Shown here in pieces: positions 1 through 35,627 of a stretch of 36,049 bases of DNA. The stretch spans positions 1 to 36,049 of the forward strand of contig CALGBT010000425.1 of the NCBI GenBank assembly GCA_937884235.1. The letters are read 5' to 3'. Under the pieces are notes generated by a model. It was given only the letters and a program-made list of their open reading frames with translations. It ran no database searches and was not told the origin of the DNA. The translations under genes and the position numbers were made by a program. Every line of letters begins with the position of its first letter. The first letter of the stretch is position 1. The stretch comes from an uncultured Pseudomonadota bacterium. Lineage in GTDB: Bacteria; Myxococcota_A; UBA9042; CAIXZC01.

Positions 1-2429
1 CCAAGCAGAGCCACGGTGTGCATGTCCTTGACCACCGAGATGGTCTCGGCACCATCCGCCCCCGGGTAGAGCAATTGGCCACCGCCGGAGATGAACTGAT
101 GGCCTGCAGCAAGGTCGAAGTCCCCGGGACGCAACACCGGCACCGTCTGCACGCCGAAACCACCGTCAAGAACGCCTGGAAACGGGAGCGATGCCAGGTC
201 GCTACCACCGGCCAGCGCCGCCCCGGGAAGCACCGCTACCACCAGCAACAGCCCGAAAGTGATACTTGAGCGACGCCAGCAGAGCAGGGACAACAGCAAC
301 ACCAGAAGCAGCCAGAGCCCAGCCATACCGGAGCCGTTCGCAACTCCACATCCGGCCACATACTCTGCGTCCGCCGGTCGCCTGTGACCCGGGTAGTCGG
401 AAGCACCGAGAGGCGAGGTGCCAGCCTCAACTTCCTCCAGGTCGTCATATCCGTCACCATCCGAATCGGCCGCATTGGGGTCAGTACCCAACGCCCCTTC
501 TTCCGCGTCGCTCAGTCCGTCACCGTCTCCATCATCGTCACAGGCATCACCCGGCCCCTCACCGTCACTATCTTCCTGGCCCGCATTGACCACGTCCGGA
601 CAGTTATCCTCACCATCGGCGATGCCATCACCGTCGTCATCGTCATCACAAACATCACCCAGGCCATCCTTGTCGAGGTCCGCCTGCCCCAGATTGGCCA
701 CATCAGGGCAGTTATCGAGGAAATCCTGAACCAGATCGCCATCACGGTCGGGGTCGCAAATGTCGCCCGCCCCGTCTTCGTCCAGGTCCTCCTGGCCGGC
801 ATTGGCGACGGCCTGACAGTTGTCATCGACATCCTCGATGTCATCTCCGTCCACGTCCTCATCGCAGGCGTCACCAAGGCCATCGCCGTCCTGATCTTCC
901 TGCCCCGGGTTGTAAAGGTCCAGGCACACGTCCACGCCGTCATCTACTTCGTCCCCATCGAGGTCCTTCTCGACGTCGCAGTAGTCCCCAACCCCATCAT
1001 CGTCCCAATCCTCTTGCACAACGTTCTGTACCAGCGGGCAGTTGTCTTCCAGATCGGCAATGGAGTCATTGTCGTCATCAGGGTCACATGCATCGCCCAA
1101 GCCATCGAAGTCGGTGTCAGTCTGACTCCCATTGGGCGCCAGGGGGCAGTTGTCCGCTTCATTGAGCGTACCGTCACCGTCCTCATCAGGATCGCAGACA
1201 TTCCCCTGCCCGTCGCCATCGGCATCCTGCTGCACCGGGTTATATGCCGTCGGGCAATTGTCGTTTCCGTCTGTGATTTCGTCGTTATCGTCATCGACGT
1301 CACAGAGGTCTCCTATGCCATCCTGATCAAGATCCTCCTGCTCAGGATTGCCCACGGTCTTGCAATTGTCTTCGCCATCCAAAAGACCATCGGCGTCATC
1401 ATCATCGTCTACACAATCGGCAATGCCATCTTCGTCGGTGTCCAACTTGCCGTCGTCCACCAGACCATCGCAGTCGTTGTCGATGCCATCACACTTCTCA
1501 ATGGCAAAGGGGAAGATGCTGGGGTCAAAGGGTTCGCAATCATCCCCGTCGTCAGACCCATCATTATCATCGTCAAAGTCGCAAGCATCACCCGCACCGT
1601 CCTGTTCGAAATCCTCCTGACCGGGGTTCTTCAAGAAGGGGCAATTGTCCTCGGAATCGACCACCCCGTCACCATCGATGTCCGTCACCAGGTCACAGGC
1701 ATCACCAACATCGTCGCCGTCCGCATCCTGCTGCCCGGGATTGGGTACGGCCGGGCAATTGTCCAGAGCATCGACAACTCCGTCAGCATCGTCATCTGTA
1801 TCGCAAGCATCACCGAGGCCGTCCTTGTCGATATCTTCCTGGAGGGGATTACTCGTTTTAGGGCAGTTATCAACGCCATCAGAGAGCCCATCGCCATCGT
1901 CGTCCGGGTCGCAGACGTTGCCCAGTCCATCATTGTCGGTATCGAGCTGATCGGCGTTCTTCTTCAGCGGGCAGTTATCCAACTCGTCGATGATGCCGTC
2001 GCCATCATCGTCAGCGGCACAAGCATCGCCAACGCCATCGCCGTTGGTATCCTTCTGGTCGGCATTCTGATGAAAGGGGCAGTTATCAAGCACATTGGCC
2101 ACCAGATCGCCGTCTAGATCGCCGTCGCAGTCATTGCCCACGCCATCACCATCCAGGTCGGCCTGGTTGGGATTGAACAGCTGCGGACAATTGTCCTTGG
2201 TATCGGCCAGACCATCATCATCATCATCGGGGTCGCAAGCATCACCCACGGAATCATCATCCAGATCGTCCTGCCCGGGATTGAAGAGCAGGGGGCAGTT
2301 GTCAGCATCGAGACAGATGCCATCACCATCCAGGTCAGTACCGGGGAGACATGCCGCCAGCGCCGGCAGCGGGAGAGCCAGCAGCAACAGCAGCATCAGG
2401 AAGTATCGCAACCTCAGAGCAAGTACCAT
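1..2429 (-). CDS. Thrombospondin type-3 (TSP3) calcium-binding repeat lipoprotein; 3' end runs off the window
   Basis: Absent from the ORF track because this minus frame has no stop before the window edge. ATG at 2429-2427. N-terminus MVLALRLRYFLMLLLLLALPLPALAAC has lipobox LAAC. My translation shows many DNCPxxxNxxQxDxDxDGxGDxCDxDxDxDG units, e.g. around 1000-1160: EADNCPLAPNGSQTDTDFDGLGDACDPDDDNDSIADLEDNCP. The listed + ORF 384..2117 is its antisense shadow. Confidence 0.85.
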   Translation of the reverse strand, partial: MVLALRLRYFLMLLLLLALPLPALAACLPGTDLDGDGICLDADNCPLLFNPGQDDLDDDSVGDACDPDDDDDGLADTKDNCPQLFNPNQADLDGDGVGNDCDGDLDGDLVANVLDNCPFHQNADQKDTNGDGVGDACAADDDGDGIIDELDNCPLKKNADQLDTDNDGLGNVCDPDDDGDGLSDGVDNCPKTSNPLQEDIDKDGLGDACDTDDDADGVVDALDNCPAVPNPGQQDADGDDVGDACDLVTDIDGDGVVDSEDNCPFLKNPGQEDFEQDGAGDACDFDDDNDGSDDGDDCEPFDPSIFPFAIEKCDGIDNDCDGLVDDGKLDTDEDGIADCVDDDDDADGLLDGEDNCKTVGNPEQEDLDQDGIGDLCDVDDDNDEITDGNDNCPTAYNPVQQDADGDGQGNVCDPDEDGDGTLNEADNCPLAPNGSQTDTDFDGLGDACDPDDDNDSIADLEDNCPLVQNVVQEDWDDDGVGDYCDVEKDLDGDEVDDGVDVCLDLYNPGQEDQDGDGLGDACDEDVDGDDIEDVDDNCQAVANAGQEDLDEDGAGDICDPDRDGDLVQDFLDNCPDVANLGQADLDKDGLGDVCDDDDDGDGIADGEDNCPDVVNAGQEDSDGEGPGDACDDDGDGDGLSDAEEGALGTDPNAADSDGDGYDDLEEVEAGTSPLGASDYPGHRRPADAEYVAGCGVANGSGMAGLWLLLVLLLSLLCWRRSSITFGLLLVVAVLPGAALAGGSDLASLPFPGVLDGGFGVQTVPVLRPGDFDLAAGHQFISGGGQLLYPGADGAETISVVKDMHTVALL

Positions 2430-5545: not shown

Positions 5546-6046
5546 GTGGCTGATCAGAAACTGCTGCAGGCGCTGACCGATGCCATTCGGGCAGAGGTGG
5601 AAGGACATTCATTTTACTTGATGGCCGCCCAAACCACGGCGGATAAGCAGGGGCAAGAGGTCTTTGAACGACTCGCCCAAGAGGAGCTGAAACACGCTGC
5701 CTTTCTGCGGAGCCAGTACGATTCACTGCTCTCCTCCGGCAAGGTCTCCGAAGCCAAACTGGGCGTGCCAGACTTCCCCGCCGGATCGATGATCTTCTCC
5801 CCCGAGTTGCGAAGCAGGGTCAAGGAAGCAAACTTCGAAGTCACCGCCCTCTCCATCGGCGCTCAACTGGAGCAATCAGCCATGGTTTTCTACGCCGACC
5901 AGGCCGCGGCCGCAGAGGACCCCGCAGTCGCCAGCTTCTTCACCGACCTATCAGAGTGGGAACGCGAGCACTATCGCTTACTCACAGGCCAGCTCGCGGA
6001 ACTGCAACATGATTTCTGGGGCGCCAACCGCTTCTCGCCTTTCTAG
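5546..6046 (+). CDS. Rubrerythrin/ferritin-like di-iron four-helix-bundle protein
   Basis: GTG start preceded by GAGGGG. Paired carboxylate/His motifs: AEVEGHSFY, QEELKHAAFL, LEQSAMVFY, EWEREHY. Confidence 0.85.
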   Translation: MADQKLLQALTDAIRAEVEGHSFYLMAAQTTADKQGQEVFERLAQEELKHAAFLRSQYDSLLSSGKVSEAKLGVPDFPAGSMIFSPELRSRVKEANFEVTALSIGAQLEQSAMVFYADQAAAAEDPAVASFFTDLSEWEREHYRLLTGQLAELQHDFWGANRFSPF

Positions 6047-6067
6047 CCACCGGGCTCGGAGAAGCCG

Positions 6068-6583
6068 ATGTTCAAACTGACAGCCATCCAGGCTGACATC
6101 ACAACGCTACAGGTCGACGCCATCGTCAACGCGGCCAACCGCACTCTGCTGGGCGGTGGCGGAGTCGACGGCGCCATCCATCGACGCGCCGGCCACGAAC
6201 TACTGACACATTGCCGACGCCTTGACGGTTGCGCCACTGGCGATGCGAAGATTACCCCCGGCTTCAATCTGCCGGCACGGTTCGTCATCCATACCGTCGG
6301 TCCCGTCTGGAGCGGCGGCGACTCGGGCGAACCGGAATTGCTGGCCAGTTGCTACCAGAGATCGCTCGAGTTGGCCGAAGAACACCGCCTCAAATCCATC
6401 GCCTTCCCGGCCATCAGCGCAGGCGTCTACGGCTATCCGCTGGAGCTTGCGACGCACATCGCAGTCACGACCGTCGGTAATCACCTGACCGGCAAAGACT
6501 CCGACCTTCAAGTCACCTTCTGCTGCTTCTCCGCCACTGCGTTGAAAATCTACGCCAGCGAACTTGAAGCACAATCGAACTGA
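6068..6583 (+). CDS. ymdB: Macro-domain O-acetyl-ADP-ribose deacetylase (YmdB family)
   Basis: GDITTLQVDAIVNAAN..LLGGGGVDGAIHRRAG...HTVGPVW...IAFPAISAGVYGYP closely follows E. coli YmdB as I remember it. SD GGAGAAG lies upstream. Confidence 0.9.
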   Translation: MFKLTAIQADITTLQVDAIVNAANRTLLGGGGVDGAIHRRAGHELLTHCRRLDGCATGDAKITPGFNLPARFVIHTVGPVWSGGDSGEPELLASCYQRSLELAEEHRLKSIAFPAISAGVYGYPLELATHIAVTTVGNHLTGKDSDLQVTFCCFSATALKIYASELEAQSN

Positions 6584-6955
6584 CCGAGGCAATGGCACTG
6601 TGAGCAATTCCCCACGGCAGGCTGATGAAATGTGTGTGCCAGAATTGCGTTCCCCCAATTGCAACGGTTGAATGCGGTCTTGCAGCTTGCACTAGAAACA
6701 TCAATGGCGTATTTCGGACTATATCGCCCTCATCCGTTGCCATATATAGGTCGCTGTTATGTGTCGCACTAGTCCCTGGCCCATGCGGTCCTCACATACC
6801 CCGCCCCGCTCATACCCAACCCCCGTCCACCCCAGTAATGACCAACACAGCGCCTGGCGTAAGCCTGGCGACGCCGTTAGTCTTGCGCCTGGCGATGCGT
6901 ATCACAGCCAGCGCTGCCCGGAAAGCATGGGTGGTGCGATAGAAGCGTCACCAGC

Positions 6956-6994
6956 CTGACGGCCGGTGCTGTGTTCGAGTTTGGGTAGGAGGGG
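6956..6994. repeat. Degenerate copy of the tail of the dispersed intergenic repeat
   Basis: CTGACGG...GTGTTCGAGTTTGGGTAGGAGGGG compared with CTGACGCGGTGTTTTGAGATGGGCGGG (35903-35929) and TTGACGCGGTGTTCGTATTCGGAATGGGATGGG (4171-4203). Aligned by eye, with an insertion. Confidence 0.3.
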
Positions 6995-7035
6995 CTAAGG
7001 GCACAGCGCAATTGCCTCAACTGACCAACCCGACC

Positions 7036-7065
7036 TTGGACCACACAAACAACCAGTGCTATACT
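7036..7065 (+). promoter_or_regulatory. Candidate sigma70-type promoter (TTGGAC-N18-TATACT)
   Basis: TTGGAC at 7036-7041 and TATACT at 7060-7065, about 25 nt upstream of the ATG at 7091. It closes a ~500 bp ORF-poor, lower-GC gap. Sequence match only. Confidence 0.25.
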
Positions 7066-7090
7066 GGCCCCTCATAGGGAAGGTCATGGC

Positions 7091-7339
7091 ATGAAGACGA
7101 TATTCGGTGCACGGATAGTGTTCGCTCCGGTCGCTTCCAGTAGTAGCGAAAAGGCGAAGTCAGAAGTCCAGGAGGAGGCCGACATCATATCCGCTGACGG
7201 GAGCCTCGCCGAGACCCTCACAGACCTAGCGAACGCGTCTGACCTGGTCCCCGAACTGACGGACGCCCCCCCCCTTGACACTGCGGAAGTATCCGCAACG
7301 GATACGGCCGGTACCCGTGTGGACGGCAGTGGTTTCTAA
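7091..7339 (+). CDS. 82-aa acidic low-complexity ORF upstream of the radical SAM gene (hypothetical)
   Basis: ATG preceded by GGGAAGG at 7 nt. GC3 is about 67% by my count, slightly below neighbouring genes. Sequence MKTIFGARIVFAPVASSSSEKAK then ...DLVPELTDAPPLDTAEVSATDTAGTRVDGSGF resembles the acidic linkers of nearby lipoproteins. Ends 27 nt before the rSAM start. Confidence 0.35.
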   Translation: MKTIFGARIVFAPVASSSSEKAKSEVQEEADIISADGSLAETLTDLANASDLVPELTDAPPLDTAEVSATDTAGTRVDGSGF

Positions 7340-7366
7340 CCTTCTTGTACATGCAGGAGAAAGCCC

Positions 7367-9757
7367 ATGAAGATCATCCTTATCGGAGCAGAACTCGAAG
7401 AAAACCTGGCCGTTCGCTATCTCGCCCCGCCCCTGCTTGATGCCGGACACGAGGTAGAGATCATTGCCTTTGACGACCCGTCGCAGCAGCTTCGGCTGGC
7501 CCGGGAGTTGGCCGAGAAGAAGCCGGACGTCATCGGTATGTCAGTCGCCTTCCAACACCGCTTGACCGACTTCCGCAATCTCGCTCGGACGCTGCGCAGC
7601 GCTGGCCTCGAGAGTGTCATCGTCTGGGGCGGGCATATTCCCACCGCCCGGGCCGGGCAGATTCTTGAAGCCTATCCCGAGGTGGACATCATCGTTCGCC
7701 ACGATGGCGAGGAGACCCTCCTTGAGTTGGTCGCCGCCCTGGACGGAAACTCGCTGGGAGTTGCAGAGGGTCCCAGAGAGGTGACCGGCCAACTGCTCCT
7801 GACACTCAAAGAGATCAAGGGACTGGCCTTCCGTCTGCCCGGCGGCAAGCCCGGCATGACCCCGGCGCGCCCCGCGCCGCGCAACCTCGATGAAATCGAT
7901 ACCCCCTGGCGGCAGGGCAAGCCCGCCCGCCACGGCGGCCTCGGCTTCTCGCCCATCCTCGGCAGCCGCGGCTGCTGGGGAAGCTGTACCTACTGCTCCA
8001 TCCAGACCTACCACCGCGGTCGGGGCGGCCCCCGGGTGCGCCTGCGAGAGCCCACCGCCATCGCCGCCGAAATGGCCGAAATGTACCATCACGACCAGAC
8101 CCGCATCTTCTGCTTCCACGACGAGAACTTCTTTCTGCCAAAGCCAGACCACACCCTCGCTCGCCTGCGGGAGATTCGCAGTGAACTCGACCGACGAGGG
8201 GTCGGCAAAATCGGCATGGTCGCCAAATGCCGACCCGACGAACTGAGCCCGAAGCTCCTTGGCGAAGCCCGCAAGATGGGGCTGATTCGCGTCTACGTGG
8301 GCATCGAAAACGGCTCCCAGGCCGGCCTCGACCACCTCGGCCGCAACACCAACGTCGAAACCTGCGGCCACGCCCTCCAGATGCTGCGCGACGCTGACGT
8401 TTACGCCTGCTACAACGTCCTGCTCTTCGAACCCGACACCACCCTCACCGACGTCTCCGAAAATCTTGCCTTCCTCAATGAGAACTCGGATTTCCCGTGG
8501 AACTTCTGCCGCACCGAAATCTATCCCGGGTCGTTCATGGAGCAGAGCCTCAAGGCGCAGGGCCGCCTGCGCGGTGGCCTCGAAGGCATGACCTACACCA
8601 TCGCCGACCCCCGGGCCGAACTGCTCTTCAGAATCAGCGCCATCGCCTTCTCGGGCCGCAACTTCGGCACGCAGTCCACTGCCAATGCCGCCAGCGGCGT
8701 CCGGTACCTGGCTGCTGTGCTCGACCACTTCTACGGTGGCCGCCAGGCCCGAGCCTTCTTGCGCAGTTCCAACGAAGTGACCCTGAGGCTGGGCCACGAT
8801 ACCCTGACCCGACTCACCCTCGCCCATGACTTCGTGGCCAGCGGCGAAACCAGACCCGGCGAAATCACCCGCTTCACCGCCGAACTGGCCCGCCAGGTTG
8901 CCATCGCCGATGCAGAGTTCTGGCCCGCCCTCGAAACCCTCCGAATCGAGATGAATCGCTATGGCTCCAGACACGCCCCTGCCCTGCTGGCACCTTCCAT
9001 GGGACGACAAGCTCTGGCGAAGACCGCAGCACTGCTGGCCGCCGCCGGGCTGGCCGGCGTCGCGTGCGACAGCAAGACGACGGTCATGGACCCGGTACCT
9101 GGCGACCTGCGGGACAACCAGGACATCATGGTCATGGATCCGCTGCCGGATGACGTCACCGGTCAGCAGGACGTCATGGTCTACGATCCCCTGCCGCCAG
9201 ACGTCATCGAGCAGGACTACATGGTCGTCGACCCCCTGCCCGAAGATGCCTTTGAGCAGCAGGACTACATGGTGGTCGACCCGCCGCCTCCCGACGTTGT
9301 TGAGCAGGACTACATGGTGGTCGACCCACCGCCCCCGGACGTCACCGACACCGTGGAACAGGAAGACATCATGGTCATGGACCCACTTCCTCCTGACATC
9401 AAAGAAGAGGACGCCGGGGAGAAGAAGGACGTGCCGCCCCCGGTAGACCCACCGCCACCAGACCAGTCCGCCTTCGAGCCCGCCCAGCCGGGGAGCCCCG
9501 CAGCACTGCCACTGGACCGCGGCTTCAGAGTCAAACTGACCACCGAAACCATCAATGGGGCCATCCACTTCACCACCCGCTGCACCGGCACCGCCGAACC
9601 AACCCTGCAGTGGACCTGCCGCGGCGGCACCATGGAGGCCACCGGCACCACCGCCATCTTCCGACCAACCGGCACCGGACCCGCCATGGTCCAGGTCCAC
9701 GCCCGCGCCGGCCAGCACCTCCTCGATGTTGCCACCTGGCTGCCTCACATCGCCTGA
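7367..9757 (+). CDS. B12-binding-domain (class B) radical SAM enzyme with a C-terminal membrane segment, tandem-repeat region and beta domain
   Basis: SD AGGAGA. N-terminal Rossmann/B12-binding module (MKIILIGAELEENLAVRYL, DVIGMSVAF, VIVWGGH). CWGSCTYC (CxxxCxxC) at nt 7973-7996. ENFF, VGIENGS. Hydrophobic ALAKTAALLAAAGLAGVAC at 9011-9067. Repeats at 9083-9466. Confidence 0.9.
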   Translation: MKIILIGAELEENLAVRYLAPPLLDAGHEVEIIAFDDPSQQLRLARELAEKKPDVIGMSVAFQHRLTDFRNLARTLRSAGLESVIVWGGHIPTARAGQILEAYPEVDIIVRHDGEETLLELVAALDGNSLGVAEGPREVTGQLLLTLKEIKGLAFRLPGGKPGMTPARPAPRNLDEIDTPWRQGKPARHGGLGFSPILGSRGCWGSCTYCSIQTYHRGRGGPRVRLREPTAIAAEMAEMYHHDQTRIFCFHDENFFLPKPDHTLARLREIRSELDRRGVGKIGMVAKCRPDELSPKLLGEARKMGLIRVYVGIENGSQAGLDHLGRNTNVETCGHALQMLRDADVYACYNVLLFEPDTTLTDVSENLAFLNENSDFPWNFCRTEIYPGSFMEQSLKAQGRLRGGLEGMTYTIADPRAELLFRISAIAFSGRNFGTQSTANAASGVRYLAAVLDHFYGGRQARAFLRSSNEVTLRLGHDTLTRLTLAHDFVASGETRPGEITRFTAELARQVAIADAEFWPALETLRIEMNRYGSRHAPALLAPSMGRQALAKTAALLAAAGLAGVACDSKTTVMDPVPGDLRDNQDIMVMDPLPDDVTGQQDVMVYDPLPPDVIEQDYMVVDPLPEDAFEQQDYMVVDPPPPDVVEQDYMVVDPPPPDVTDTVEQEDIMVMDPLPPDIKEEDAGEKKDVPPPVDPPPPDQSAFEPAQPGSPAALPLDRGFRVKLTTETINGAIHFTTRCTGTAEPTLQWTCRGGTMEATGTTAIFRPTGTGPAMVQVHARAGQHLLDVATWLPHIA
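9083..9466 (+). repeat. In-frame tandem coding repeats (7 units of 15-19 aa, 45-57 nt) within the rSAM ORF
   Basis: Units: VMDPVPGDLRDNQ / DIMVMDPLPDDVTGQQ / DVMVYDPLPPDVIEQ / DYMVVDPLPEDAFEQQ / DYMVVDPPPPDVVEQ / DYMVVDPPPPDVTDTVEQE / DIMVMDPLPPDIKEE, followed by DVPPPVDPPPPDQ. Confidence 0.9.
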
Positions 9758-9840
9758 AGTACCCCCTTATCGCAACCGCCCTTCACCTTGCGACCAGCAC
9801 GGCCATGGGTTAGACTCACTCACGCTACTTGGAGGACTGT

Positions 9841-14892
<5,052 letters not shown>

Positions 14893-14901
14893 AGTCCCCG
14901 C

Positions 14902-16698
14902 CTACAGTTGCTTCAAAGCAGTAGCGGGCATCAGCGTGAAATGAAAGGTCGACCCCTTGCCCGGCTTTGATTCGGCCCAGATCTTGCCGCCGTGACGCTC
15001 CACAACGCGCTGGCAGACGGCCAGACCGATTCCCGTTCCCTCAAACTCCCGAGGATTGCAGACACGCTGGAAGATCCGGAAGACCCGTTCACTGTCCCGC
15101 ATGTCAAAACCGATGCAGTTGTCCTCCACCGAAATCTGCCAGAAATCTCCGACTCTCTCAGCCCCAATTCGGACAACAGAAGGTAATTCGCTCCTGAACT
15201 TGATGGCATTGGCAATGAGATTCTGGAAGAGCTGACCGAGCAGCCCATTGTGCCCCAGCACCGAGGGCAACGCCGGCGAAAGCTCGACGGTGGCGCCCGC
15301 CTCATCAATGTTCGCGTGGAGACTTAGCCTGACCTGCTCAACGACCTCGCGCAGATCCACTGGCAGGAGGGTCGCAGCCCGGGTGCCGGCACGAGAGTAC
15401 TCGAGCAGATCGAGGATGAAGCGGTTCATGTGAGTCGTTCCATCAACGGCATGCCGGATGTATTTGTGCGCACCCTCGTCAAGTTGGTCCCCGTACTTGC
15501 GAACCAGCAAGCCCAGGAATCCACTGACGGTGCTGAGCGGCCCCTGAAGGTCATGCGAAACCGTGTGGGCAAACTGCGTCAGATCGGCGTTAGACCGCTC
15601 TAGCTCCTGTACCTTCTCAACCAACTCCCGCTCAGCCCGTCGGCGCGCGGTTTCGGTCCGGGCATTGGAGATGGCTAGACCGCAGAGATTAACGATGGCA
15701 AGCGCAAGATTAAGGTAATCGCCAACACGATCCGAGATGGGGAGTTCGCGCACCAGCAGAACCCCCAGATCCGCCTCACGAAAAGAAACCCTGACGGCAA
15801 AGCCGCCCGACAACATCGCATAGGCATCGCCAGGCCGTAGCGCCCGAAGGCACCCCGACACCTCGTCGTAGCGGACGGGGACCGAGCGAGTGGAACGAAT
15901 CTCACCATACCCCCCACCGTCAACGGGCACATAATCGACACAACCAGCTCCAGTCAACATCGAGAAAATCTCAAGGACCTTTTCCACGGCCTCATCCTCA
16001 CCCATGGTGCGGGTGAGTTCGGCGAGGAGATCGAAGGTCATCGCCTGCTGGGCAACCAGAGAATCGCTACGGCTACTCGCCGCCCGAAAATCCGCGGCAT
16101 GGCAGTTGAGCCGCCACTCAAGAATGGCCTTCTCCACGTGCAGACGCATTACCTCCAGGCCAACATCATGAGTCTCCCCTGGCAACCCGAGGTACTCGCA
16201 AAACTCCTTGAACTCGCCACCGCTCGGGCGCGCAACGCCAGTCTCCAAGAGGACAATGCGGGAGATACTCTCGCGAAAGAACTCCTGGGCGTGTTGCTGG
16301 TCAAAGCCCCATCCGTCGATGCGCTGGCGCCATTGGTCGAGCCAACCGGGCGTAAGCAGATAGGCCCCTTCTGCCTGGAGTTGCCGCACCCATTTCGAGT
16401 TGGCGAAGAGCGAAAAGCAGGAATCGACTGCATGGACGGCGGTGGGAGAAAGAGCATCGAGTACATCACCGGTCCTGCTGACACAACAGAATCCCAGGAC
16501 AATGAGGTCTTCGTCCTCCGGTCGGCGGGAGAAGCCTCGCAGAGCCTCAAGTTCTTCCGGGGTCAGGGTAGCGTTGGACTGGGTGCAACCCGCACGATAG
16601 CTGCCTACCCCGACATTGTCGTAACCCTCTGCCTCAAGGACCTCACGCACCTCCCTGAGATAGTGGTGACAGACGATGATCTGCAGTCGCCGAACCAT
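14902..16698 (-). CDS. Sensor histidine kinase with N-terminal DUF1638-like domain and GAF-like domain
   Basis: The ATG at 16698 overlaps the upstream stop (TGATG); the track starts at a GTG 3 nt upstream. N-terminus: LQIIVCHHYLREVREVL...LIVLGFCCVS...VDSCFSLF...AYLLTPGWLDQWRQ, DUF1638-like from memory. H-box HTVSHDLQGPLSTV, N-box LFQNLIANAIKF, G-boxes DNCIGF and GTGIGLAVCQRVVERHGGKIW. Confidence 0.9.
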   Translation of the reverse strand: MVRRLQIIVCHHYLREVREVLEAEGYDNVGVGSYRAGCTQSNATLTPEELEALRGFSRRPEDEDLIVLGFCCVSRTGDVLDALSPTAVHAVDSCFSLFANSKWVRQLQAEGAYLLTPGWLDQWRQRIDGWGFDQQHAQEFFRESISRIVLLETGVARPSGGEFKEFCEYLGLPGETHDVGLEVMRLHVEKAILEWRLNCHAADFRAASSRSDSLVAQQAMTFDLLAELTRTMGEDEAVEKVLEIFSMLTGAGCVDYVPVDGGGYGEIRSTRSVPVRYDEVSGCLRALRPGDAYAMLSGGFAVRVSFREADLGVLLVRELPISDRVGDYLNLALAIVNLCGLAISNARTETARRRAERELVEKVQELERSNADLTQFAHTVSHDLQGPLSTVSGFLGLLVRKYGDQLDEGAHKYIRHAVDGTTHMNRFILDLLEYSRAGTRAATLLPVDLREVVEQVRLSLHANIDEAGATVELSPALPSVLGHNGLLGQLFQNLIANAIKFRSELPSVVRIGAERVGDFWQISVEDNCIGFDMRDSERVFRIFQRVCNPREFEGTGIGLAVCQRVVERHGGKIWAESKPGKGSTFHFTLMPATALKQL

Positions 16699-17381
16699 CA
16701 CGCCTCTTGGGGGATCACGGGAGGCCGCACAAAAGCCTCATCTAACATCTGGCGCACGATATGAACTGCATCACTCGCAGCTACTCCGCAGGCATCGGCA
16801 CCAACTTCCCGCCAAAGCTGGTCGTCGATGCGAAATGGAGCGCCCCCCACAACCACCGCAGTATCCGGGCTCTCTTCACGTAAGCGAGCAATGACCTGCT
16901 TGACCCGGATGGCTGAGGGCAGCATGAGCACCGAGATGAGGAGCACCTTAATCTGCTCCTCACAGACCCGCTTGACCAATGTCTCCAGCGACACAGAGCC
17001 ATAACAACTGACTGCGAAACCGGCAACTCGCAACGCGGAACAGACAATACGCTGCCCCAACAGGTGCGAATCCTCGAATACCGCAACTGCGATCTGCGGC
17101 ATTGAAGCTCCACCTGCAGTCTCAGCAGCAGGACCGGGTAGTCCATTCAGGATCTCCTCGCAGAGACGACCGCTCATGTAGACCTGGGCTAGCGACACCC
17201 GGCCCGTCTCCCAGCCCTCCCCGATACGCTCGAGGACAGGAACCAGCAGGGCCTCCACATTCTCAAGGGAAAGCTCCTGTCCACCCCTCACGATCAACCC
17301 CTGTACAGACACCCGGTCGACCGCGAGCAGGGCCTGCTCCAGTTCATCCAGCAAAGACAGATTCTGCAGAATCCCAGTCAT
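16698..17381 (-). CDS. Stand-alone corrinoid (cobalamin)-binding protein: helical cap plus B12-binding Rossmann domain
   Basis: Cap region LVPVLERIGEGWETGRVSLAQVYMSG. DxHxxG present as D-S-H-L-L-G (nt 17055-17072). SxL (ISVL) and GG (VVVGGAPF) motifs present. 227 aa, the size of MtaC/MtbC-type corrinoid proteins. Confidence 0.85.
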   Translation of the reverse strand: MTGILQNLSLLDELEQALLAVDRVSVQGLIVRGGQELSLENVEALLVPVLERIGEGWETGRVSLAQVYMSGRLCEEILNGLPGPAAETAGGASMPQIAVAVFEDSHLLGQRIVCSALRVAGFAVSCYGSVSLETLVKRVCEEQIKVLLISVLMLPSAIRVKQVIARLREESPDTAVVVGGAPFRIDDQLWREVGADACGVAASDAVHIVRQMLDEAFVRPPVIPQEA

Positions 17382-30924: not shown

Positions 30925-33900
30925 TCACTTCAAGACCCTGAACAAGATGTCGTCACTCGTGTCTTCCTCCGGCAACGGTCCGCTCCAACCTACCGCCACC
31001 TTGCCGGTCCCCAACACCGTGGCAAACGGAGTCTTCTGGTCGCCTGCCTCGCGCAGGTTCAGCAGCCGTGGAAATCTCGTCTGCTCGCCGGTGGGCTTCA
31101 TTGTCACCCCTCGCACTGCCACACCTCCAGCATCCAGGCCGGACAACTCGTAGGTCAGCACCATCTTGTTGGGTCCGGCGAAAGTGAGGGCCGGGTGCGC
31201 CGGCGCACCTTCCGCTTCAACTACGATCTGTGGGCCGATCATGGTCACGTTGGAGTCCAGTCGTTGGCACAACAGCTTGGCTCCAGCGCGCCAGCACACC
31301 ATGACGGCTCCGTCCACGTGGCGTGCAAGGGCCGGTTGGTCCGGAGGGCCGAAGGTGTCAATGAGGACGTCCCCGGCTACAGATGGCTGACCGTCCATGT
31401 CGAATCTGCTGACGTAGATACCGTCTCCGACTCCGCCCTTGCCGGCCCAGGCCACCAGGAACCCCGGATCAGCGCCATCGACCACGACCAACGATGCCTG
31501 CCCCTGGTTGCCTTCCGAGGTAGCGCTCAGGGGCAACTCACCGGTAAGGGGCGACCCATCAGAATCAAAGACCCGTCCACGCAGGTCATTGCCGGTCTGC
31601 AAGGATCCGTAACTGGTCCACGCCAGTACGATCCGACCGTCGGCCAGCATTCCCAGATCGGGGTCGAACTGAGAGTCAGCCGTCGTTTCGTTGACCCTGA
31701 ACTCGTTGGTAAGAGGAACGCCCTCGCTGCTGAAGACACGGGCATAGACATCCTCTACCTCCTCCTGGCCAAACGAGGTCCAGGCAACGGCAATAGTCTT
31801 GGCTCCGGCGGCAAATCCCACGGTAGGGGCCTCCTGCATTTGGGGCACCCACTGGTTGACCTGGATCTCCGCCCCCTCTGGAGAGAGGTCCAAGCCAAAG
31901 AGCCGCAGAGCAACTCCGGTGTCAGATCCATCCACCCCTTCCGCTTCCCAGGCAATAGCCAGGCGGCCGCCGTCAAGACCAACGGCGTCAGGTGCGCTCT
32001 GGGAGCCTTCCGTATTCTGATTGGCCCGCCGTTCCGCCGCACCAGCGACGGGCTTGCCTTCCTTGTTGAACTTTCGGAATCTGATGTCCTGACTGGTGTC
32101 GTTCAACTCCTGGGCCCACAACACCAGCCACTCGTCATTTGATTCCACGGCCGAGGGCCAGTGCTGGTTGCCAGCAGTGACTTTGTTGATGGGGAATTCG
32201 CCACCAACGGGCGTCAGGCTCTTGGCGAAGAGCCTCGCCTTGACTCCCCACCCGGCACCGTCTCCGTTCTCGTCGTGCCAAACCGCTGCAAAAGCGCCGT
32301 TGCTGAATGTCAGCGGACTGTCGGTGGTCGCCTGACCACCGACAGTTGCCTGATTCGCCGCCAGCGTGGCCCCAAGGGGCGTGCCGTCCGCCTTGAACAC
32401 CTGGACAAACGCATCACATTCGCCCGCTCCGTGGCACGTACTGAAGGTGACCACCACCTTGCCGTCCGAGAAAGCCTGGCAATGAGGCTGGGTATGTTTG
32501 CCGGACTCAGTTTCCGAAACAAGAACAGGAACGCCGAGCGCAGCGCCATCCTTGCCGCGGAGGGATAGCATGGCATTCCTCTCGCCCTCGTCGTCCGCCA
32601 CGTAGACCAGGGCCACAGTATCATTGGGAAGGACACAGGCCGACGGACTGATAATGGTCTCCAGGCCCAAAGTGGCTCCGGGGTCCAGGCTCGGGGTGAT
32701 GAAACTATAGAAAGCATCTCCTCCGGGGAGCCTGGCCACTACCCCGAATGAACCGTCGGTGAAAGCCACCGCCGAAACATCTCCGAACGCGTTGTCGGCT
32801 ACCGGTAGGGTCGTGCAATTGCAGTTGTCACAACTCTCCATCCCCGAAGAGTAGTCGTGTGGCTTGCGCACCGGCCCTAGACTCTGCCATTCCGACAACT
32901 GGTCACCGGACTTGTCGAACACGGCGTACACAAGGGAGGTCCAGACCTCCCAGTGACAGGCCGAATTCCAACCACACCCCAGTACGGTGGTCTGACCGTA
33001 CGAATATCCTGCTACAACCAGCCACTCTCCTGTAGCCAATGCCACAGCATCAGCCTTGAAGACGGTGGGACCGCATTGCCACGGGTCGTGGTCCCAGGTG
33101 GCCAGCAGATCCATCTCCCGGCCCACCTTGGTCATCTCCGCATCCAGAAACTGACCGGTGAGGGCCGCGTTGCCGGACCGCCAGACAGTGACCGTATCGC
33201 CAAAGCCAAGGTCGGCTGCCTGCTGGTGGCCATTGTTGGAGAGCGTAGATACCTGTTTGGTCAGGGTATTGAGTACCCGCTCGAAACAACCGTCCATCTT
33301 GCCAACGCAAACCCCGTTGAGGCAGGAATCCTCCATCGTGCAAAGGTCTCCGTCATCACAGTTGTTGCCATCCTCTGCCGGTTCGGTAATGCAGGACTCG
33401 CTCAATTCGTCGCAGGTGGCAGAGATGCACCCCGACCCATATTGCGAGCAGTCTCTGGGAATACCTGCGCTGCACAGTCCGTTGCCGTCGCAAGCGTCGT
33501 CCTCCGTGCAATAAAGGCCGTCTTCACACGGAGTTCCCGGGTCCTTCGGTACAAGAACGCAACTATATGTCAGGGGATCGTCGCTCTCGCAAACTCCAGC
33601 TTTGCAATCGTCGTCGTCGGCCGAGCAATCGGCGACGGGGCCGGGCAGACATTGGCCGTCGGAACACTTGTCGCCCACGGTGCAGCCGTAGTCGTCAGCA
33701 TTGCACAGGGTCCCCGGAGCCTTGTTGCCGGCGACGACGCATTCATCCAGGTCCTCGTCGCAGACCGCAAGCTTGCACTGACCCACAAGGGAGCCACAAT
33801 CGATGGGGTCCCCCCCCAGACATGAACCGTCCCCATCGCACTGGTCGCCATCGGTGCAGAAGAGGCCATCCTCACACGAGAAGCCGACCGGTGCCGCAAT

Positions 33901-35532
33901 TGTAGTACACTCGTACTCAAGAATACCGAGTGACTTGCAAGACCCCACCTCGCACGGGGCGACGCCGGCGCTGCAGTCCGCCCCAACTCCGGCCTGGCAT
34001 ACTCCGCCCAGACAATAATCAAGGGTGCATCCGTCGCCATCCAGTTCGCACTCCAACCAATCAAGGCCGGTTCCGGAATGACCGCAGGTGTGCTCCACTT
34101 CGTCACAAATGTCGACGGTACATGCGTTGCCGTCGTCGCAATCAGCATCAAGCAGACAACAGCCCCCCACCAGGTCACCGACGCATTTGCCGCTGTCACA
34201 GTGGTCGCCGAAAGTGCACGCGATCCCGTCATCGCACTCCCCTTCCACGGGATTGTGCGAGCATCCACCGGCACCATCGCAGACATCTGCGGTGCACTCC
34301 TCTCCATCATCGCAGGAGTAAACCTCTCCCTGGCAGACGCCCTCTACACACTCGTCCCCCGCGGTACACGGGTTGCCGTCCTGGCAGATGCTGTCGGATG
34401 GCACGTGGAAACATCCCGATTCGGGGTCACAGCCGTCCGTCGTGCACTGGTTGTCATCGCCACAGAAGAGGGGGCTGCCAAGACACCAACCACCACTGCA
34501 CTGGTCGTCGGTTGTGCAGGCGTTGCCGTCATCACACGAATCAGCGACGGGCGAGAATACACACCCCGTCGCGGACTGACAGGAGTCGGCAGTGCAGACG
34601 TTACCATCATTACAGGCCAACACAGCCTCTCCCGCCACACACTCCCCTTCGTGACAGGTGTCACCCAGAGAACAAACATCGTTGTCATCACAAGGCAATC
34701 CGTCGTTGGCGGGCGTTGGTTTGCACTCGCCATCACCTGGATCGCAGATGTTCTTCAGGCAGGTTGTGTCCCCGGCCTGGGAACACTGCGAGATGGACGA
34801 TTCGTCAAAGTCGCAGATCCCGGCGGCACAAATGTACACACCGGTACAAGGGTTGCCATCGCCCAGACCCTCACAATCGTCATCCTCACCACAGGGCACG
34901 CCCTTCACGGAAACCGGCGTGCAAACACCGGACAGGCATTCGCCAGACACCCATGGGGCATCCGCGTATTCGCATGCCCCGGAGACGTTGGTGTGGACGC
35001 ACCCTGCAGCCGGTTCACACGTATCCAATGTGCACTGGTTCTGATCGTCGCACGCAAGGTCCGGCAACGCATCACCCTTACACGAGCCGGCGGCGCACTG
35101 GTCGTTCTCAGTGCAAAGATCACCATCGTCGCAGGGCTCCTCGTTCACTGGCTCATGTACGCACCCGCCCTCCAGAGAGCAGGTATCAACAGTGCAAGGG
35201 TCCTCGTCATCACAGGACGGGTCATTGAGGCAGAGATTGCCACAGCCATCGTCCTCACCGCACTCCTTGTCTTCACAGACTGCTACACATTCCGGGCTCA
35301 CCTCTGAGGGGAAGAAGGCCTCCAACTCCGCAATGTCGGCAACCATCGCGTCCCCCGGCGTCACGTGCACGCCATCGGCAATAACATCACCAGGCAGGTA
35401 GACGGCGGCATCCTCCGAAAGGGAGTCCCCAGGAGCAGGTTCCCGCTGATCGGGCCTCCACGCAACGGGGGAGGAAACACAGCCAACCACAAGCGGTGCA
35501 AGAATGAACACCAACACAGAGGTCTTAGTCAT
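30925..35532 (-). CDS. Giant surface lipoprotein: ~670 aa of Cys-rich repeats plus ~790 aa of propeller-like repeats
   Basis: ATG at 35532 after AGGAG. MTKTSVLVFILAPLVVGC has a lipobox. CxDGNxCTxDxC-type repeats span 33286-35292. The C-terminal part repeats [VA]W...G[VI]..R.F...G.P...EF.VN....G.Q..P, e.g. IAVAWTSFGQEEVEDVYARVFSSEGVPLTNEFRVNETTADSQFDP. Confidence 0.9.
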   Translation of the reverse strand: MTKTSVLVFILAPLVVGCVSSPVAWRPDQREPAPGDSLSEDAAVYLPGDVIADGVHVTPGDAMVADIAELEAFFPSEVSPECVAVCEDKECGEDDGCGNLCLNDPSCDDEDPCTVDTCSLEGGCVHEPVNEEPCDDGDLCTENDQCAAGSCKGDALPDLACDDQNQCTLDTCEPAAGCVHTNVSGACEYADAPWVSGECLSGVCTPVSVKGVPCGEDDDCEGLGDGNPCTGVYICAAGICDFDESSISQCSQAGDTTCLKNICDPGDGECKPTPANDGLPCDDNDVCSLGDTCHEGECVAGEAVLACNDGNVCTADSCQSATGCVFSPVADSCDDGNACTTDDQCSGGWCLGSPLFCGDDNQCTTDGCDPESGCFHVPSDSICQDGNPCTAGDECVEGVCQGEVYSCDDGEECTADVCDGAGGCSHNPVEGECDDGIACTFGDHCDSGKCVGDLVGGCCLLDADCDDGNACTVDICDEVEHTCGHSGTGLDWLECELDGDGCTLDYCLGGVCQAGVGADCSAGVAPCEVGSCKSLGILEYECTTIAAPVGFSCEDGLFCTDGDQCDGDGSCLGGDPIDCGSLVGQCKLAVCDEDLDECVVAGNKAPGTLCNADDYGCTVGDKCSDGQCLPGPVADCSADDDDCKAGVCESDDPLTYSCVLVPKDPGTPCEDGLYCTEDDACDGNGLCSAGIPRDCSQYGSGCISATCDELSESCITEPAEDGNNCDDGDLCTMEDSCLNGVCVGKMDGCFERVLNTLTKQVSTLSNNGHQQAADLGFGDTVTVWRSGNAALTGQFLDAEMTKVGREMDLLATWDHDPWQCGPTVFKADAVALATGEWLVVAGYSYGQTTVLGCGWNSACHWEVWTSLVYAVFDKSGDQLSEWQSLGPVRKPHDYSSGMESCDNCNCTTLPVADNAFGDVSAVAFTDGSFGVVARLPGGDAFYSFITPSLDPGATLGLETIISPSACVLPNDTVALVYVADDEGERNAMLSLRGKDGAALGVPVLVSETESGKHTQPHCQAFSDGKVVVTFSTCHGAGECDAFVQVFKADGTPLGATLAANQATVGGQATTDSPLTFSNGAFAAVWHDENGDGAGWGVKARLFAKSLTPVGGEFPINKVTAGNQHWPSAVESNDEWLVLWAQELNDTSQDIRFRKFNKEGKPVAGAAERRANQNTEGSQSAPDAVGLDGGRLAIAWEAEGVDGSDTGVALRLFGLDLSPEGAEIQVNQWVPQMQEAPTVGFAAGAKTIAVAWTSFGQEEVEDVYARVFSSEGVPLTNEFRVNETTADSQFDPDLGMLADGRIVLAWTSYGSLQTGNDLRGRVFDSDGSPLTGELPLSATSEGNQGQASLVVVDGADPGFLVAWAGKGGVGDGIYVSRFDMDGQPSVAGDVLIDTFGPPDQPALARHVDGAVMVCWRAGAKLLCQRLDSNVTMIGPQIVVEAEGAPAHPALTFAGPNKMVLTYELSGLDAGGVAVRGVTMKPTGEQTRFPRLLNLREAGDQKTPFATVLGTGKVAVGWSGPLPEEDTSDDILFRVLK

Positions 35533-35627
35533 AAAAGGCTCCTGACAACGGTCTTCTTCGGCCATTCTACAACGGCGAAATGAAAACTAAAAGGTCCATG
35601 GAGAGATCGGGGGACGGGGGGATAGCT

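Follow-up and report, generated by a model that had tools for sequence, protein, structure and literature searches.

We found that a putative class B radical SAM enzyme and a lipoprotein-like module are obligate genetic partners: they are either joined in one polypeptide or encoded by neighbouring genes with little or no space between them. A single ORF in the 36,049-nucleotide stretch of DNA that was analysed (the window) represents the fused form, and its features are summarized in Table 1. Our leading interpretation, which we consider slightly short of an even chance, is a two-component system that pairs a cobalamin-dependent radical SAM enzyme with an exported lipoprotein cognate to it and that has become one polypeptide here by fusion.

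Table 1. Positions in the window of the fused ORF and of its component features.
Feature	Position (nt)	Strand	Evidence or remarks
Single ORF, putative class B radical SAM enzyme plus lipoprotein-like module	7367..9757	+	796 aa, ATG start
B12-binding Rossmann domain, aa 12-121	7400..7729	+	Pfam PF02310, E 2e-19; AF2 pLDDT >90
Radical SAM core, aa 200-354	7964..8428	+	Pfam PF04055, E 4.6e-12
Helical C-terminal part of the enzyme, aa 415-541	8609..8989	+	AF2 secondary structure, pLDDT >95
Internal lipoprotein-type signal segment, aa 545-567	8999..9067	+	PS51257-like match; AF2 helix 545-563
Eight acidic/proline repeats, aa 573-700	9083..9466	+	TRF; motif list; disordered
C-terminal Ig/PKD-like 7-strand beta-sandwich, aa 711-796	9497..9754	+	AF2 pLDDT about 95

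An earlier, sequence-only reading of this DNA had proposed that B12-binding and radical SAM modules continue in frame, at aa 545 and with no stop, into a lipoprotein-like module. This is confirmed here by the translation, which is open throughout without internal stops, by the detection of both Pfam domains (PF02310 with 70 bits against a cut-off of 32.1) and by the homologues, which share the unbroken architecture. The CWGSCTYC motif (aa 203-210, nt 7973-7996) lies inside the radical SAM core, and C203, C207 and C210 were invariant across 71 homologues. The helical region that follows was conserved in both fused and split homologues, and in the AF2 model its long helices 458-491 and 497-541 run toward the hydrophobic segment. 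We assign the N-terminal module, on its sequence and predicted fold, to the class B (cobalamin-dependent) radical SAM enzymes. Like the ORF described here, peptide- and protein-modifying members of this class (PoyB/C, the bottromycin RMTs, Mmp10, MgmA) have an N-terminal B12-binding Rossmann domain and a CxxxCxxC radical SAM core, but none of them is known to have a fused or paired lipoprotein. The nearest solved structures were OxsB, MgmA (PDB 9ccb), TokK, TsrM and CysS, with Foldseek E values of 1.7e-21 for OxsB, 3e-18 for MgmA and about 1e-16 to 4e-15 for the other three; OxsB was also matched by phmmer against the PDB (4e-7), and identity to the top-ranked structures was only 14-18%. In NCBIfam, the full ORF matched class B or other generic radical SAM models only, none of them near its cut-off: the best was BchE (107 bits against 481), and HpnR, HpnJ, KedN5, ApyD, PhpK, BzaD, the MCR Gln methylase and the ladderane-type model gave 12-67 bits against cut-offs of 57-775. 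No Pfam or NCBIfam family was found for the tail alone (aa 545-796) or for three split partner lipoproteins, with the NCBIfam search taken to E 0.1 or 0.01, and neither partner is covered by a curated family. The earlier statement that the architecture is not known from characterised class B enzymes holds as far as tested in NCBIfam, the PDB, Foldseek and the literature, and no prior description of a B12-radical SAM/lipoprotein pair was found in the literature searched.

The tail opens with the string MGRQALAKTAALLAAAGLAGVAC (aa 545-567, nt 8999-9067), composed of an n-region with R/K, a 14-aa uncharged h-region and the lipobox AGVA↓C, with Cys567 at nt 9065-9067. Its likeness to a lipoprotein signal, noted before, was borne out: AAAGLAGVA↓C satisfies a lipobox rule in the style of PROSITE PS51257, and so do about 9 ORFs of the window that are genuine lipoproteins with the signal at the N-terminus. 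The internal match is not due to chance, because the same rule matched only 1 of 88 homologues within the first 500 aa. The repeats that follow have the consensus [DE][IV][MP]VVDP[LP]PPDVx[ED], with a TRF period of 45-48 nt over 9119-9348 and eight DPxP motifs between aa 575 and 697; they were disordered in the AF2 model (pLDDT <50 for aa 565-704). A conserved LPLDRxFRV precedes the terminal domain of about 85 aa, which reached the same high pLDDT when folded alone as in the full-length protein. For this domain Foldseek gave generic Ig/PKD similarity only (E >= 0.017), and its profile partially matched tandem PKD/Ig repeats of giant surface proteins; full-length matches, wherever checked, were tails of radical SAM genes. 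In an index of 5.8 billion proteins the profile found short ORFs only, and the two checked as possible stand-alone proteins were frameshift-split tails of adjacent radical SAM genes in long-read MAGs. Matches of 283-413 aa from an exhaustive search were fused proteins truncated at the N-terminus. The two Cys residues that had been remarked upon in the domain are not conserved in homologues. A conserved disulfide was therefore rejected as an export marker, and none marks the domain as periplasmic.

The fused architecture of about 800 aa recurred in 22 homologues (P0001 to P0022; 49-99% identity, 100% coverage) from independent ENA, NCBI, JGI and Logan assemblies. Three of them were close to the window sequence (P0001, 99%; P0002, 82%; P0003, 79%) and the other 19, from different samples and assemblers, had 49-56% identity; several clades at a greater distance also had this architecture. 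The two modules are encoded as adjacent genes in other clades, which include Myxococcota and Gemmatimonadota; this arrangement was seen in loci L004, L005 and L006 as well as in 26 of the 76 genome loci. There, a radical SAM gene of about 540 aa is followed at -28 to +73 nt, often with a 4-nt ATGA overlap, by a lipoprotein gene that has its own Shine-Dalgarno sequence (SD), a complete N-terminal signal peptide and a "C..(A)VDPxPPP" motif. The lipoprotein genes of L006, L017 and L020 bear repeats of the window type, and that of L006 also an LPLSR-type C-terminal domain; the split pair of L006 occupies positions 6001-7632 and 7635-8228 of its locus. At least 36 loci were fused. In a neighbour-joining tree without bootstrap support, the fused state appeared in at least 3-4 clades, and the clade of the window was sister to a split clade. 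Altogether, the radical SAM/lipoprotein cassette was present in at least 318 species-level genomes. Comparison of the window with L001 to L007 showed no conserved gene neighbourhood beyond the pair itself, which thus gives no hint of a pathway.

The signal segment begins at residue 545 of the ORF, not at its N-terminus as in the split homologues, and its features are kept across the family. The uncharged stretch before the Cys had a median of 15 aa in fused and split forms alike. Residue -1 was A, G or S in 74 of 82 proteins, the Cys was retained in 43 of 46 fused loci, and two of the three loci without it carried an AxA↓Q signal peptidase I site in its place. The charge across the family was +2.8 before the segment and -1.65 after it, and the positive-inside rule was satisfied in 93%. 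A Tat-type signal was also considered, as some relatives have RR before the h-region; the window has GRQ. In length and cleavage-site features the segment resembles a signal peptide more than a stable anchor, and the data support a real fusion whose tail crosses the membrane. The strict lipobox rule was satisfied by 46 of 88 family members, many of the others having Pro at -2/-3 or T/N at -1; because only about 50% conform, we do not claim lipidation for all members.

All forms of the partner share a short acidic-proline motif just after the Cys, and this motif differs according to the clade of the enzyme. In 77 of 82 proteins its first copy followed the Cys at a median distance of 9 aa, and its type was VVDP[LP]PPD in the clade of the window and PPPDPLPPP or [ST]HxxEMAPP in others. 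A logo built from 166 instances in 22 proteins, with 6-10 copies per protein, showed D0, P3 and D5 at 96-100%. Polyangiaceae tails consist of the motif and nothing else. The motif thus behaves as a repeated core. Ribosome stalling at polyproline was considered as an alternative reason for its conservation, DPP, PPP and PPD being strong stallers.

On this basis we propose that the radical SAM enzyme matures its cognate lipoprotein before export. The co-variation of the repeated motif with the enzyme clade suggests that the C-terminal module could be the substrate of the N-terminal enzyme. In its most specific form, the fused protein would be a self-processing enzyme-substrate polyprotein, in which the radical SAM domain modifies VVDP[LP]PPD in its own tail, and Lgt and LspA cut at the internal signal and lipidate the product; we regard this as possible rather than probable. 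The tail would be modified by the cytoplasmic enzyme domain before or during export, with the repeated motif as the most likely site. C-methylation is the commonest class B chemistry on peptides, and C-methylation of Val, Pro or Asp would be the most likely reaction here, although both the chemistry and the target residue are guesses. The internal signal would then insert N-in/C-out and the tail be translocated, after which Lgt and LspA would lipidate Cys567 and cleave before it. The released product would be a modified lipoprotein of about 230 aa, with a Pro-rich acidic tether and an Ig-like head, and the enzyme would stay behind. We know of no demonstrated action of Lgt and LspA on a signal peptide preceded by some 540 residues; a literature search found no such case, nor did we find in the literature searched anything relevant on internal lipoprotein signal peptides in bacteria. 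Several other points speak against the proposal. A 1:1 fusion of both is costly, only about half of the family passes the strict lipobox rule, and neither Pfam nor NCBIfam revealed an RRE-like or other known peptide-recognition domain. Moreover, the repeats are disordered in the AF2 model, which places no motif in the active site. The full-length pTM, 0.82 despite 140 disordered residues, hints that the Ig-like domain may be packed against the enzyme, a cytoplasmic contact that, if real, the proposal could explain only as a pre-export complex.

The sequence-only reading had offered three explanations of its own: a membrane-tethered enzyme acting on lipid or envelope substrates, internal initiation, or an assembly error. 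As to the first, the fusion and its membrane-crossing tail, with positive-inside charge, withstood analysis; an anchor for lipid or envelope chemistry is disfavoured because the tail is an obligate genetic partner that other clades encode as a separate lipoprotein gene. In its general form, this explanation holds that the protein is permanently bitopic, the hydrophobic segment being an uncleaved signal-anchor that keeps the enzyme at the inner membrane face, with a lipid, an envelope precursor or another non-protein substrate. The Pro-rich tail and the Ig-like domain would then be a periplasm-spanning structural or regulatory arm, as in TonB or an anti-sigma factor, and the partner in split forms would dock to the enzyme while held in the membrane by its uncleaved N-terminus. 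Such an arrangement would avoid the cost of a single-use enzyme. It is also consistent with the N-in/C-out charge bias, with the many non-canonical lipoboxes, with the AF2 helix 545-563, which directly extends the last long helix of the enzyme, with the Pro-rich PPII spacers typical of periplasm-spanning proteins, and with the weak, sub-threshold NCBIfam similarity to the lipid-acting HpnR and HpnJ and to the ladderane-type protein. However, a stable transmembrane helix is usually longer than the uncharged stretch of about 15 aa, the length of which does not increase from split to fused proteins. If the segment were a plain anchor, there would be no reason for about 90% of members to keep a Cys preceded by a small residue, or for another clade to have a cleavage site in place of this Cys, and the strict conservation and clade-specific switching of the motif exceed the needs of a spacer. 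In addition, no lipid-pathway genes were conserved near the pair in the neighbourhoods compared. We therefore consider the bitopic arrangement unlikely, although it is the strongest competitor of the proposed maturation of a lipoprotein.

Internal initiation at ATG 8999 would yield a nested gene, that is, a free lipoprotein in addition to a read-through fusion, the latter being a by-product of a lost stop codon. The position of this ATG, exactly 22 codons before the Cys, is typical of signal-peptide length, and the ancestral state was probably two coupled genes. Nevertheless, the two closest relatives, at about 80% identity, have Thr or Ser in place of Met545 (codons ACC or TCT), although their next 20 residues are identical. 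The anti-SD duplex energy upstream of 8999 was only -1.5 kcal/mol, and median SD strength was -9.3 in split homologues versus -2.2 in fused ones. Among 43 fused junctions, 13 had no in-frame ATG, GTG or TTG and only 11 had an ATG, and several clades have kept the fusion despite deep divergence. These results show that fused proteins are encoded by one ORF in which no internal start is conserved, and make a nested gene improbable. More doubtful still is that the tail stays inside, the helix and the Ig-like domain being cytoplasmic parts of the enzyme (for instance, for oligomerisation or substrate capture) and the likeness to a lipoprotein signal only a relic. The pTM indirectly suggests a confident placement of the C-terminal domain relative to the enzyme, and the variable Cys pair would be compatible with a cytoplasmic location. 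Against this, the same module opens with a complete signal peptide in split forms, the signal features are under purifying selection in fused ones, PKD/Ig-like domains, like acidic Pro-rich tethers, are usually seen in extracytoplasmic proteins, and the other profile matches were giant surface proteins. An alignment of orthologues at the junction showed one ORF in the fused relatives: an in-frame 3-nt indel was the sole difference in length between the window and the two relatives at about 80%, 30 of 42 variable sites were at third codon positions, and in the 17 codons from K551 to C567 the figure was 13 of 14, with zero amino-acid changes. Frameshift artefacts do occur at these repeats in long-read MAGs, but they work in the opposite direction, by splitting fused genes. 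Although split homologues exist, an assembly or sequencing artefact that deleted a stop codon or frameshift between two genes can be practically dismissed, since the fused ORF is repeated in the independent, 99% identical contig P0001 and in P0002, P0003 and 19 others, and the junction substitutions respect codon positions.

The proposed maturation of an exported lipoprotein would find parallels in DAG-RiPPs and in the fused and split borosins. In the former, cytoplasmic RiPP enzymes act on precursors with lipoprotein signal peptides that are then processed by Lgt, Lsp and Lnt; MNIO-modified precursors carry an SPII signal, and some substrates are whole proteins of >30 kDa (PMC13056109). As proposed for the cassette described here, the gene of the modifying enzyme adjoins a precursor with a lipoprotein-signal leader and a conserved lipobox Cys, and some relatives use signal peptidase I signals, as does clade L074/L075. 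A putative precursor with an SPII signal is found here beside the enzyme in the 26 split loci and, in the fused ones, this putative precursor is joined C-terminally to the enzyme, which is why the signal peptide becomes internal. The two systems differ in the enzyme, which is an MNIO (DUF692) in DAG-RiPPs and shows only B12-binding and radical SAM domains in Pfam and NCBIfam here, and in the target, a Cys motif there and, as a candidate, the repeated acidic-proline motif here. Borosins include OphMA-type fused and split alpha-N-methyltransferase/precursor systems (PMC8429565; 10.1101/2021.12.24.474128). They resemble the cassette in that enzyme and substrate (a candidate substrate in the cassette) occur in one polypeptide or in adjacent genes depending on the lineage, with the substrate C-terminal; they differ in enzyme superfamily and chemistry, in having no export signal between enzyme and substrate, and in having short peptides as cores instead of lipoprotein-sized modules. 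MgmA, a protein-modifying class B enzyme among the closest structures, may be regarded as a precedent. Radical SAM maturases of exported proteins are represented by anSME/AtsB, which mature sulfatases, and QhpD, which matures QhpC. There, as would be the case here, the target of a cytoplasmic Fe-S radical enzyme is modified first and exported afterwards, but these enzymes are of the SPASM/twitch type without cobalamin, are not fused to their substrates and are not known to act on lipoproteins. Finally, in NCBIfam/TIGRFAMs, "rSAM/lipoprotein system" designates a radical SAM gene genomically paired with a lipoprotein gene. No such model was among the matches of the full ORF, the tail or the three split partners, and by these sequence searches the system described here is not a member of that pair.

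The minimal, well-supported result is an uncurated two-gene radical SAM/lipoprotein cassette that has been repeatedly fused, and it helps to annotate many entries now named "cobalamin-dependent protein" or "hypothetical protein". The family is present in hundreds of species of Myxococcota, Gemmatimonadota and other groups. If the proposal is true, this would be the first family of lipoproteins matured by a radical SAM enzyme, and cobalamin radical SAM enzymes would join the newly recognised modified peptides and proteins that depend on the lipoprotein pathway, with a modification, new and probably of novel chemistry, on an acidic-proline motif that is very conserved. In addition, an internal lipoprotein signal peptide would be seen to serve as a polyprotein cleavage site for the first time in a natural bacterial protein, which would imply that Lgt and LspA are able to use a signal peptide that lies 540 residues deep in a polypeptide. 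The natural fused and split versions, side by side, and a short repeated candidate target that is easy to follow by mass spectrometry offer an experimental handle on this biology.

The sequence-only reading had described a radical SAM ORF that continues into a lipoprotein-like module. The domains, CWGSCTYC, the in-frame signal-like segment, the repeats and the C-terminal domain were all found where it had placed them, and the description was therefore accurate, except that a Cys pair noted in the C-terminal domain was not conserved among homologues. Pfam recovered both the B12-binding and the radical SAM domains, and for the last 252 aa neither Pfam nor NCBIfam gave a match. The PROSITE-style lipobox rule that the internal segment satisfies was also passed by about nine ordinary N-terminal lipoprotein ORFs in the window; acidic linkers were present in many of these, DPxP repeats in none.

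Features of the radical SAM ORF and of other genes in the window
Feature	Residues	Nucleotides	Strand	Remarks
Radical SAM ORF		7367..9757	+	796 aa; ATG start; no internal stop
B12-binding domain	12-121			Pfam E 2e-19
Radical SAM core	200-354			Pfam E 4.6e-12
CWGSCTYC	203-210	7973-7996
Signal-like segment, MGRQALAKTAALLAAAGLAGVAC	545-567	8999-9067
Acidic/proline motif		9119-9348		Eight copies 3' of the Cys; the coordinates are those of the TRF period (45-48 nt)
C-terminal domain				About 85 aa, after the repeats
Lipoprotein ORF		3-2411	-	Starts at 2411, runs off window start; lipoprotein signal, 13 thrombospondin type 3 repeats (Pfam E 2e-114)
577-aa ORF		384-2117	+	Overlaps ORF 3-2411; no Pfam match; probably spurious
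82-aa acidic ORF		7091-7339	+	Ends 27 nt before the radical SAM gene with ..GTRVDGSGF
1687-aa lipoprotein		9829-14892	+	Directly downstream of the radical SAM gene, not conserved beside it in other loci; BACON/Ig-like N-terminal domains, long Cys-rich middle, NosD/right-handed beta-helix part
Histidine kinase		14902-16701	-	HisKA, HATPase_c; N-terminal DUF1638 domain
B12-binding_2/B12-binding protein		16698-17381	-	4-nt overlap with the kinase gene
1545-aa lipoprotein		30925-35565	-	Dictyostelium-type CTDC Cys-rich repeats (PF00526, E 1e-22), an unusual family in a bacterium

Among the neighbouring genes, the 82-aa ORF ends like the C-terminus (..GT[RK]VDGSSF) of an LTD-domain lipoprotein, the gene of which lies 25-26 nt upstream of the radical SAM gene in the loci of homologues P0002 and P0003 (L088, L089). 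By its sequence it looks like a truncated remnant that lost the LTD domain, and tblastn of full LTD-domain proteins against the window gave no match. The histidine kinase and the B12-binding protein, encoded 5 kb away from the cobalamin enzyme, may form a corrinoid-linked sensor pair.

A search of 5.8 billion proteins yielded one homologue 99% identical to the window protein (P0001, 796 aa, on an independent contig), two at 82% (P0002) and 79% (P0003), and 19 more at 49-56% identity, all with 100% query coverage and 767-828 aa long, plus more distant relatives of 620-890 aa. Their common layout runs from the enzyme through basic residues, an Ala/Leu-rich hydrophobic stretch and a small residue plus Cys to the repeats and a domain 'LPLDRxFRV...LDVARxxP'. 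Alignment of the junction DNA with the P0002 and P0003 loci, a check proposed by the sequence-only reading, disclosed one continuous ORF: the sole indel was of 3 nt and in frame, and third codon positions made up 30 of the 42 variable columns. The 17 codons that span K551 to C567 contained 14 variable sites, 13 of them third-position, and no amino acid changed. The recurrence of fused homologues and these codon-respecting substitutions exclude, on sequence grounds, that an assembly error produced the fusion, and the fused form is a single translation product. In two long-read MAGs the tail was called as a separate short ORF (L090, 4001-4360; L091, 4001-4483) overlapping the 3' end of the radical SAM gene by about 60 nt. 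These calls are most likely frameshift errors in GC/Pro-rich repeats, artefacts that split fused genes and do not create fusions.

Other homologues, of about 540 aa, end exactly where the hydrophobic segment of the window protein starts. In these split loci a small gene with its own GGAGG-type Shine-Dalgarno site lies directly 3' of the radical SAM gene, with a 4-nt ATGA overlap or a 2-nt gap. Its product is MIFFRLDRPAQLALIGAALVAPGC... in locus L004, ...LGLAAAGLTTC...PPPPPP in L005 and MGFWIFDDKTQLALIMAGLIGATGAAGCDD..VVADPLPVD..DPVPPD..IIADPLPPD..LPLSR.. in L006, the last of which is the module that forms the tail of the window protein. Relatives turned up in 318 genomes when GTDB species representatives were scanned, the best 80 being mostly from Myxococcota, with Gemmatimonadota, Acidobacteriota, Planctomycetota and Krumholzibacteriia also represented. 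The 3' end was complete in 76 loci. Of these, 36 scored as fused, with a hydrophobic stretch and a Cys inside the ORF, another three were fused and missed by the heuristic, and 26 were split, with the start of the lipoprotein gene at -28 to +73 nt relative to the radical SAM stop. The mature N-terminus of split lipoproteins was C-x(2-8)-(A)VDPxPPP, Gemmatimonadota included. In a neighbour-joining tree of the enzyme domain (no bootstrap), the fused state occurred in at least 3-4 clades and the sister of the window's clade was split. No gene other than the pair was conserved in the loci compared with the window. Enzyme and module are an obligate pair that was fused, or split, more than once. Several MAGs hold two paralogous systems (L033+L063, L034+L083, L025+L087, L079+L084), of which those of JADJRH01 are one fused (L033) and one split (L063). 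In Gemmatimonadota-type split loci (L021, L035, L037, L046-L081) the enzyme has an extra conserved C-terminal peptide, PPWAAE..RLG.S.G...STE.LP.P, right before the stop.

In the window's clade the tail motif was [DE][IV][MP]VVDP[LP]PPDVx[ED], with 166 instances in 22 proteins (6-10 copies each) and a D at +5 that was 96% conserved, though absent from the search pattern. The first acidic-Pro motif followed the Cys by a median of 9 aa (77 of 82 proteins). In Polyangiaceae the tail is nothing but 3-6 copies of PPPDPLPPP and a basic end, and another clade repeats [ST]HxxEM(A)PP. The motif is thus the universal tail element, varying with the enzyme clade, and the Ig-like domain is dispensable. In the AF2 model (71 sequences; pLDDT 83, pTM 0.82) the enzyme body was confident, residues 545-563 formed a helix, 565-704 were disordered, and the C-terminus was a 7-strand sandwich (pLDDT about 95), equally confident when modelled alone. 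Foldseek with this domain gave only generic Ig/PKD matches (E >= 0.017). In an exhaustive profile search, full-length matches were the C-terminal parts of fused or truncated-fused proteins, and partial ones came from giant surface proteins with PKD/Ig repeats in tandem. The pTM was reached despite 140 disordered residues, against an arithmetic expectation of about 0.70 if the 86-aa domain floated freely, which suggests that AF2 may pack the Ig-like domain on the enzyme, an unexplained point of the predicted model.

The segment between enzyme and motif behaves like a cleavable signal rather than an anchor. The 15 aa that precede the hydrophobic stretch have a net charge of +2.8 and the 15 aa that follow the Cys one of -1.65, and 93% of family members are positive-inside. 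Fused and split forms alike have a median of 15 uncharged aa ahead of the Cys, a length usual for signal peptides and on the short side for a stable helix. Of 82 proteins, 74 have A, G or S at residue -1. The Cys is present in 43 of the 46 fused loci; of the three without it, L074 and L075 carry ALA|QDD-type signal-peptidase-I sites, as does homologue P0106. Only 46 of the 88 fused members and 13 of the 24 split ones passed the strict lipobox rule (1 of 88 in a control on the first 500 aa), many having Pro at -2/-3 or T/N at -1. Both the segment and the clade-specific short motif are under selection. The main alternative, an enzyme that stays anchored in the membrane by an uncleaved segment and extends an arm into the periplasm, accounts for the topology but leaves unexplained the kept cleavage-site features, or their swap to an SPase I site, as well as the behaviour of the motif.

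Internal initiation at ATG 8999, also offered by the sequence-only reading, may give a minor extra product in this bacterium but cannot account for the family, as start and Shine-Dalgarno features are not kept in fused forms. Split lipoprotein genes have 75% ATG starts and a median anti-SD duplex energy of -9.3 kcal/mol (75% at or below -6), versus -2.2 (12% at or below -6) for the best in-frame ATG/GTG/TTG 13-35 codons before the Cys at fused junctions (Mann-Whitney p = 7e-8). Such a candidate start was absent from 13 of 43 fused junctions; ATG 8999 itself scored -1.5, and the two closest relatives have ACC and TCT at this codon. The existence of split forms makes a cytoplasmic tail unlikely.

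The enzyme is a bona fide class B member of an uncharacterised subfamily, labelled by NCBI just 'cobalamin-dependent protein'. No NCBIfam model came near its cut-off (best BchE, 107 bits vs 481), OxsB was the only PDB relative at sequence level (4e-7), and the nearest structures were OxsB, MgmA (the methyl-coenzyme M reductase glutamine methylase), TokK, TsrM, CysS and AprD4, at 14-18% identity. We infer that the enzyme would modify its partner at the acidic/proline motif before export, and that the lipoprotein pathway would then release and lipidate the modified partner. Since class B enzymes C-methylate Val or Pro in polytheonamide and bottromycin biosynthesis, methylation would be the most likely chemistry. 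In split Myxococcota partners the conserved n-region [FL][FW]x[LF]Dxxx-QLAL is weakly basic or even acidic and seems to resemble a recognition element more than a generic Sec n-region, which would fit a leader-like role. Seven split partners (L004, L006, L017, L020, L025, L034, L084) share M-x-[FL]-[FW]-x-[LF]-[DNS]-x-x-x-Q-L-A-[LA] with scant or zero net positive charge, unusual among Sec signal peptides.

The logic has precedents. DAG-RiPP precursors, some >30 kDa, carry lipoprotein signal peptides and are processed by Lgt/Lsp/Lnt, the modifying enzyme there being an MNIO; that mining covered MNIOs and does not mention radical SAM enzymes (PMC13056109). Borosins occur in both formats, enzyme and substrate being one polypeptide in certain lineages and separate in others (PMC8429565; 10.1101/2021.12.24.474128). 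Our literature search found no description of a B12-radical-SAM/lipoprotein pair or of an internal bacterial lipoprotein signal. Radical SAM maturases that act on their own exported substrate are a known theme, of which this family would be a lipoprotein-pathway-dependent variant in fused/split format, and there is a substantial chance that the chemistry and the processing of the internal signal are themselves new.
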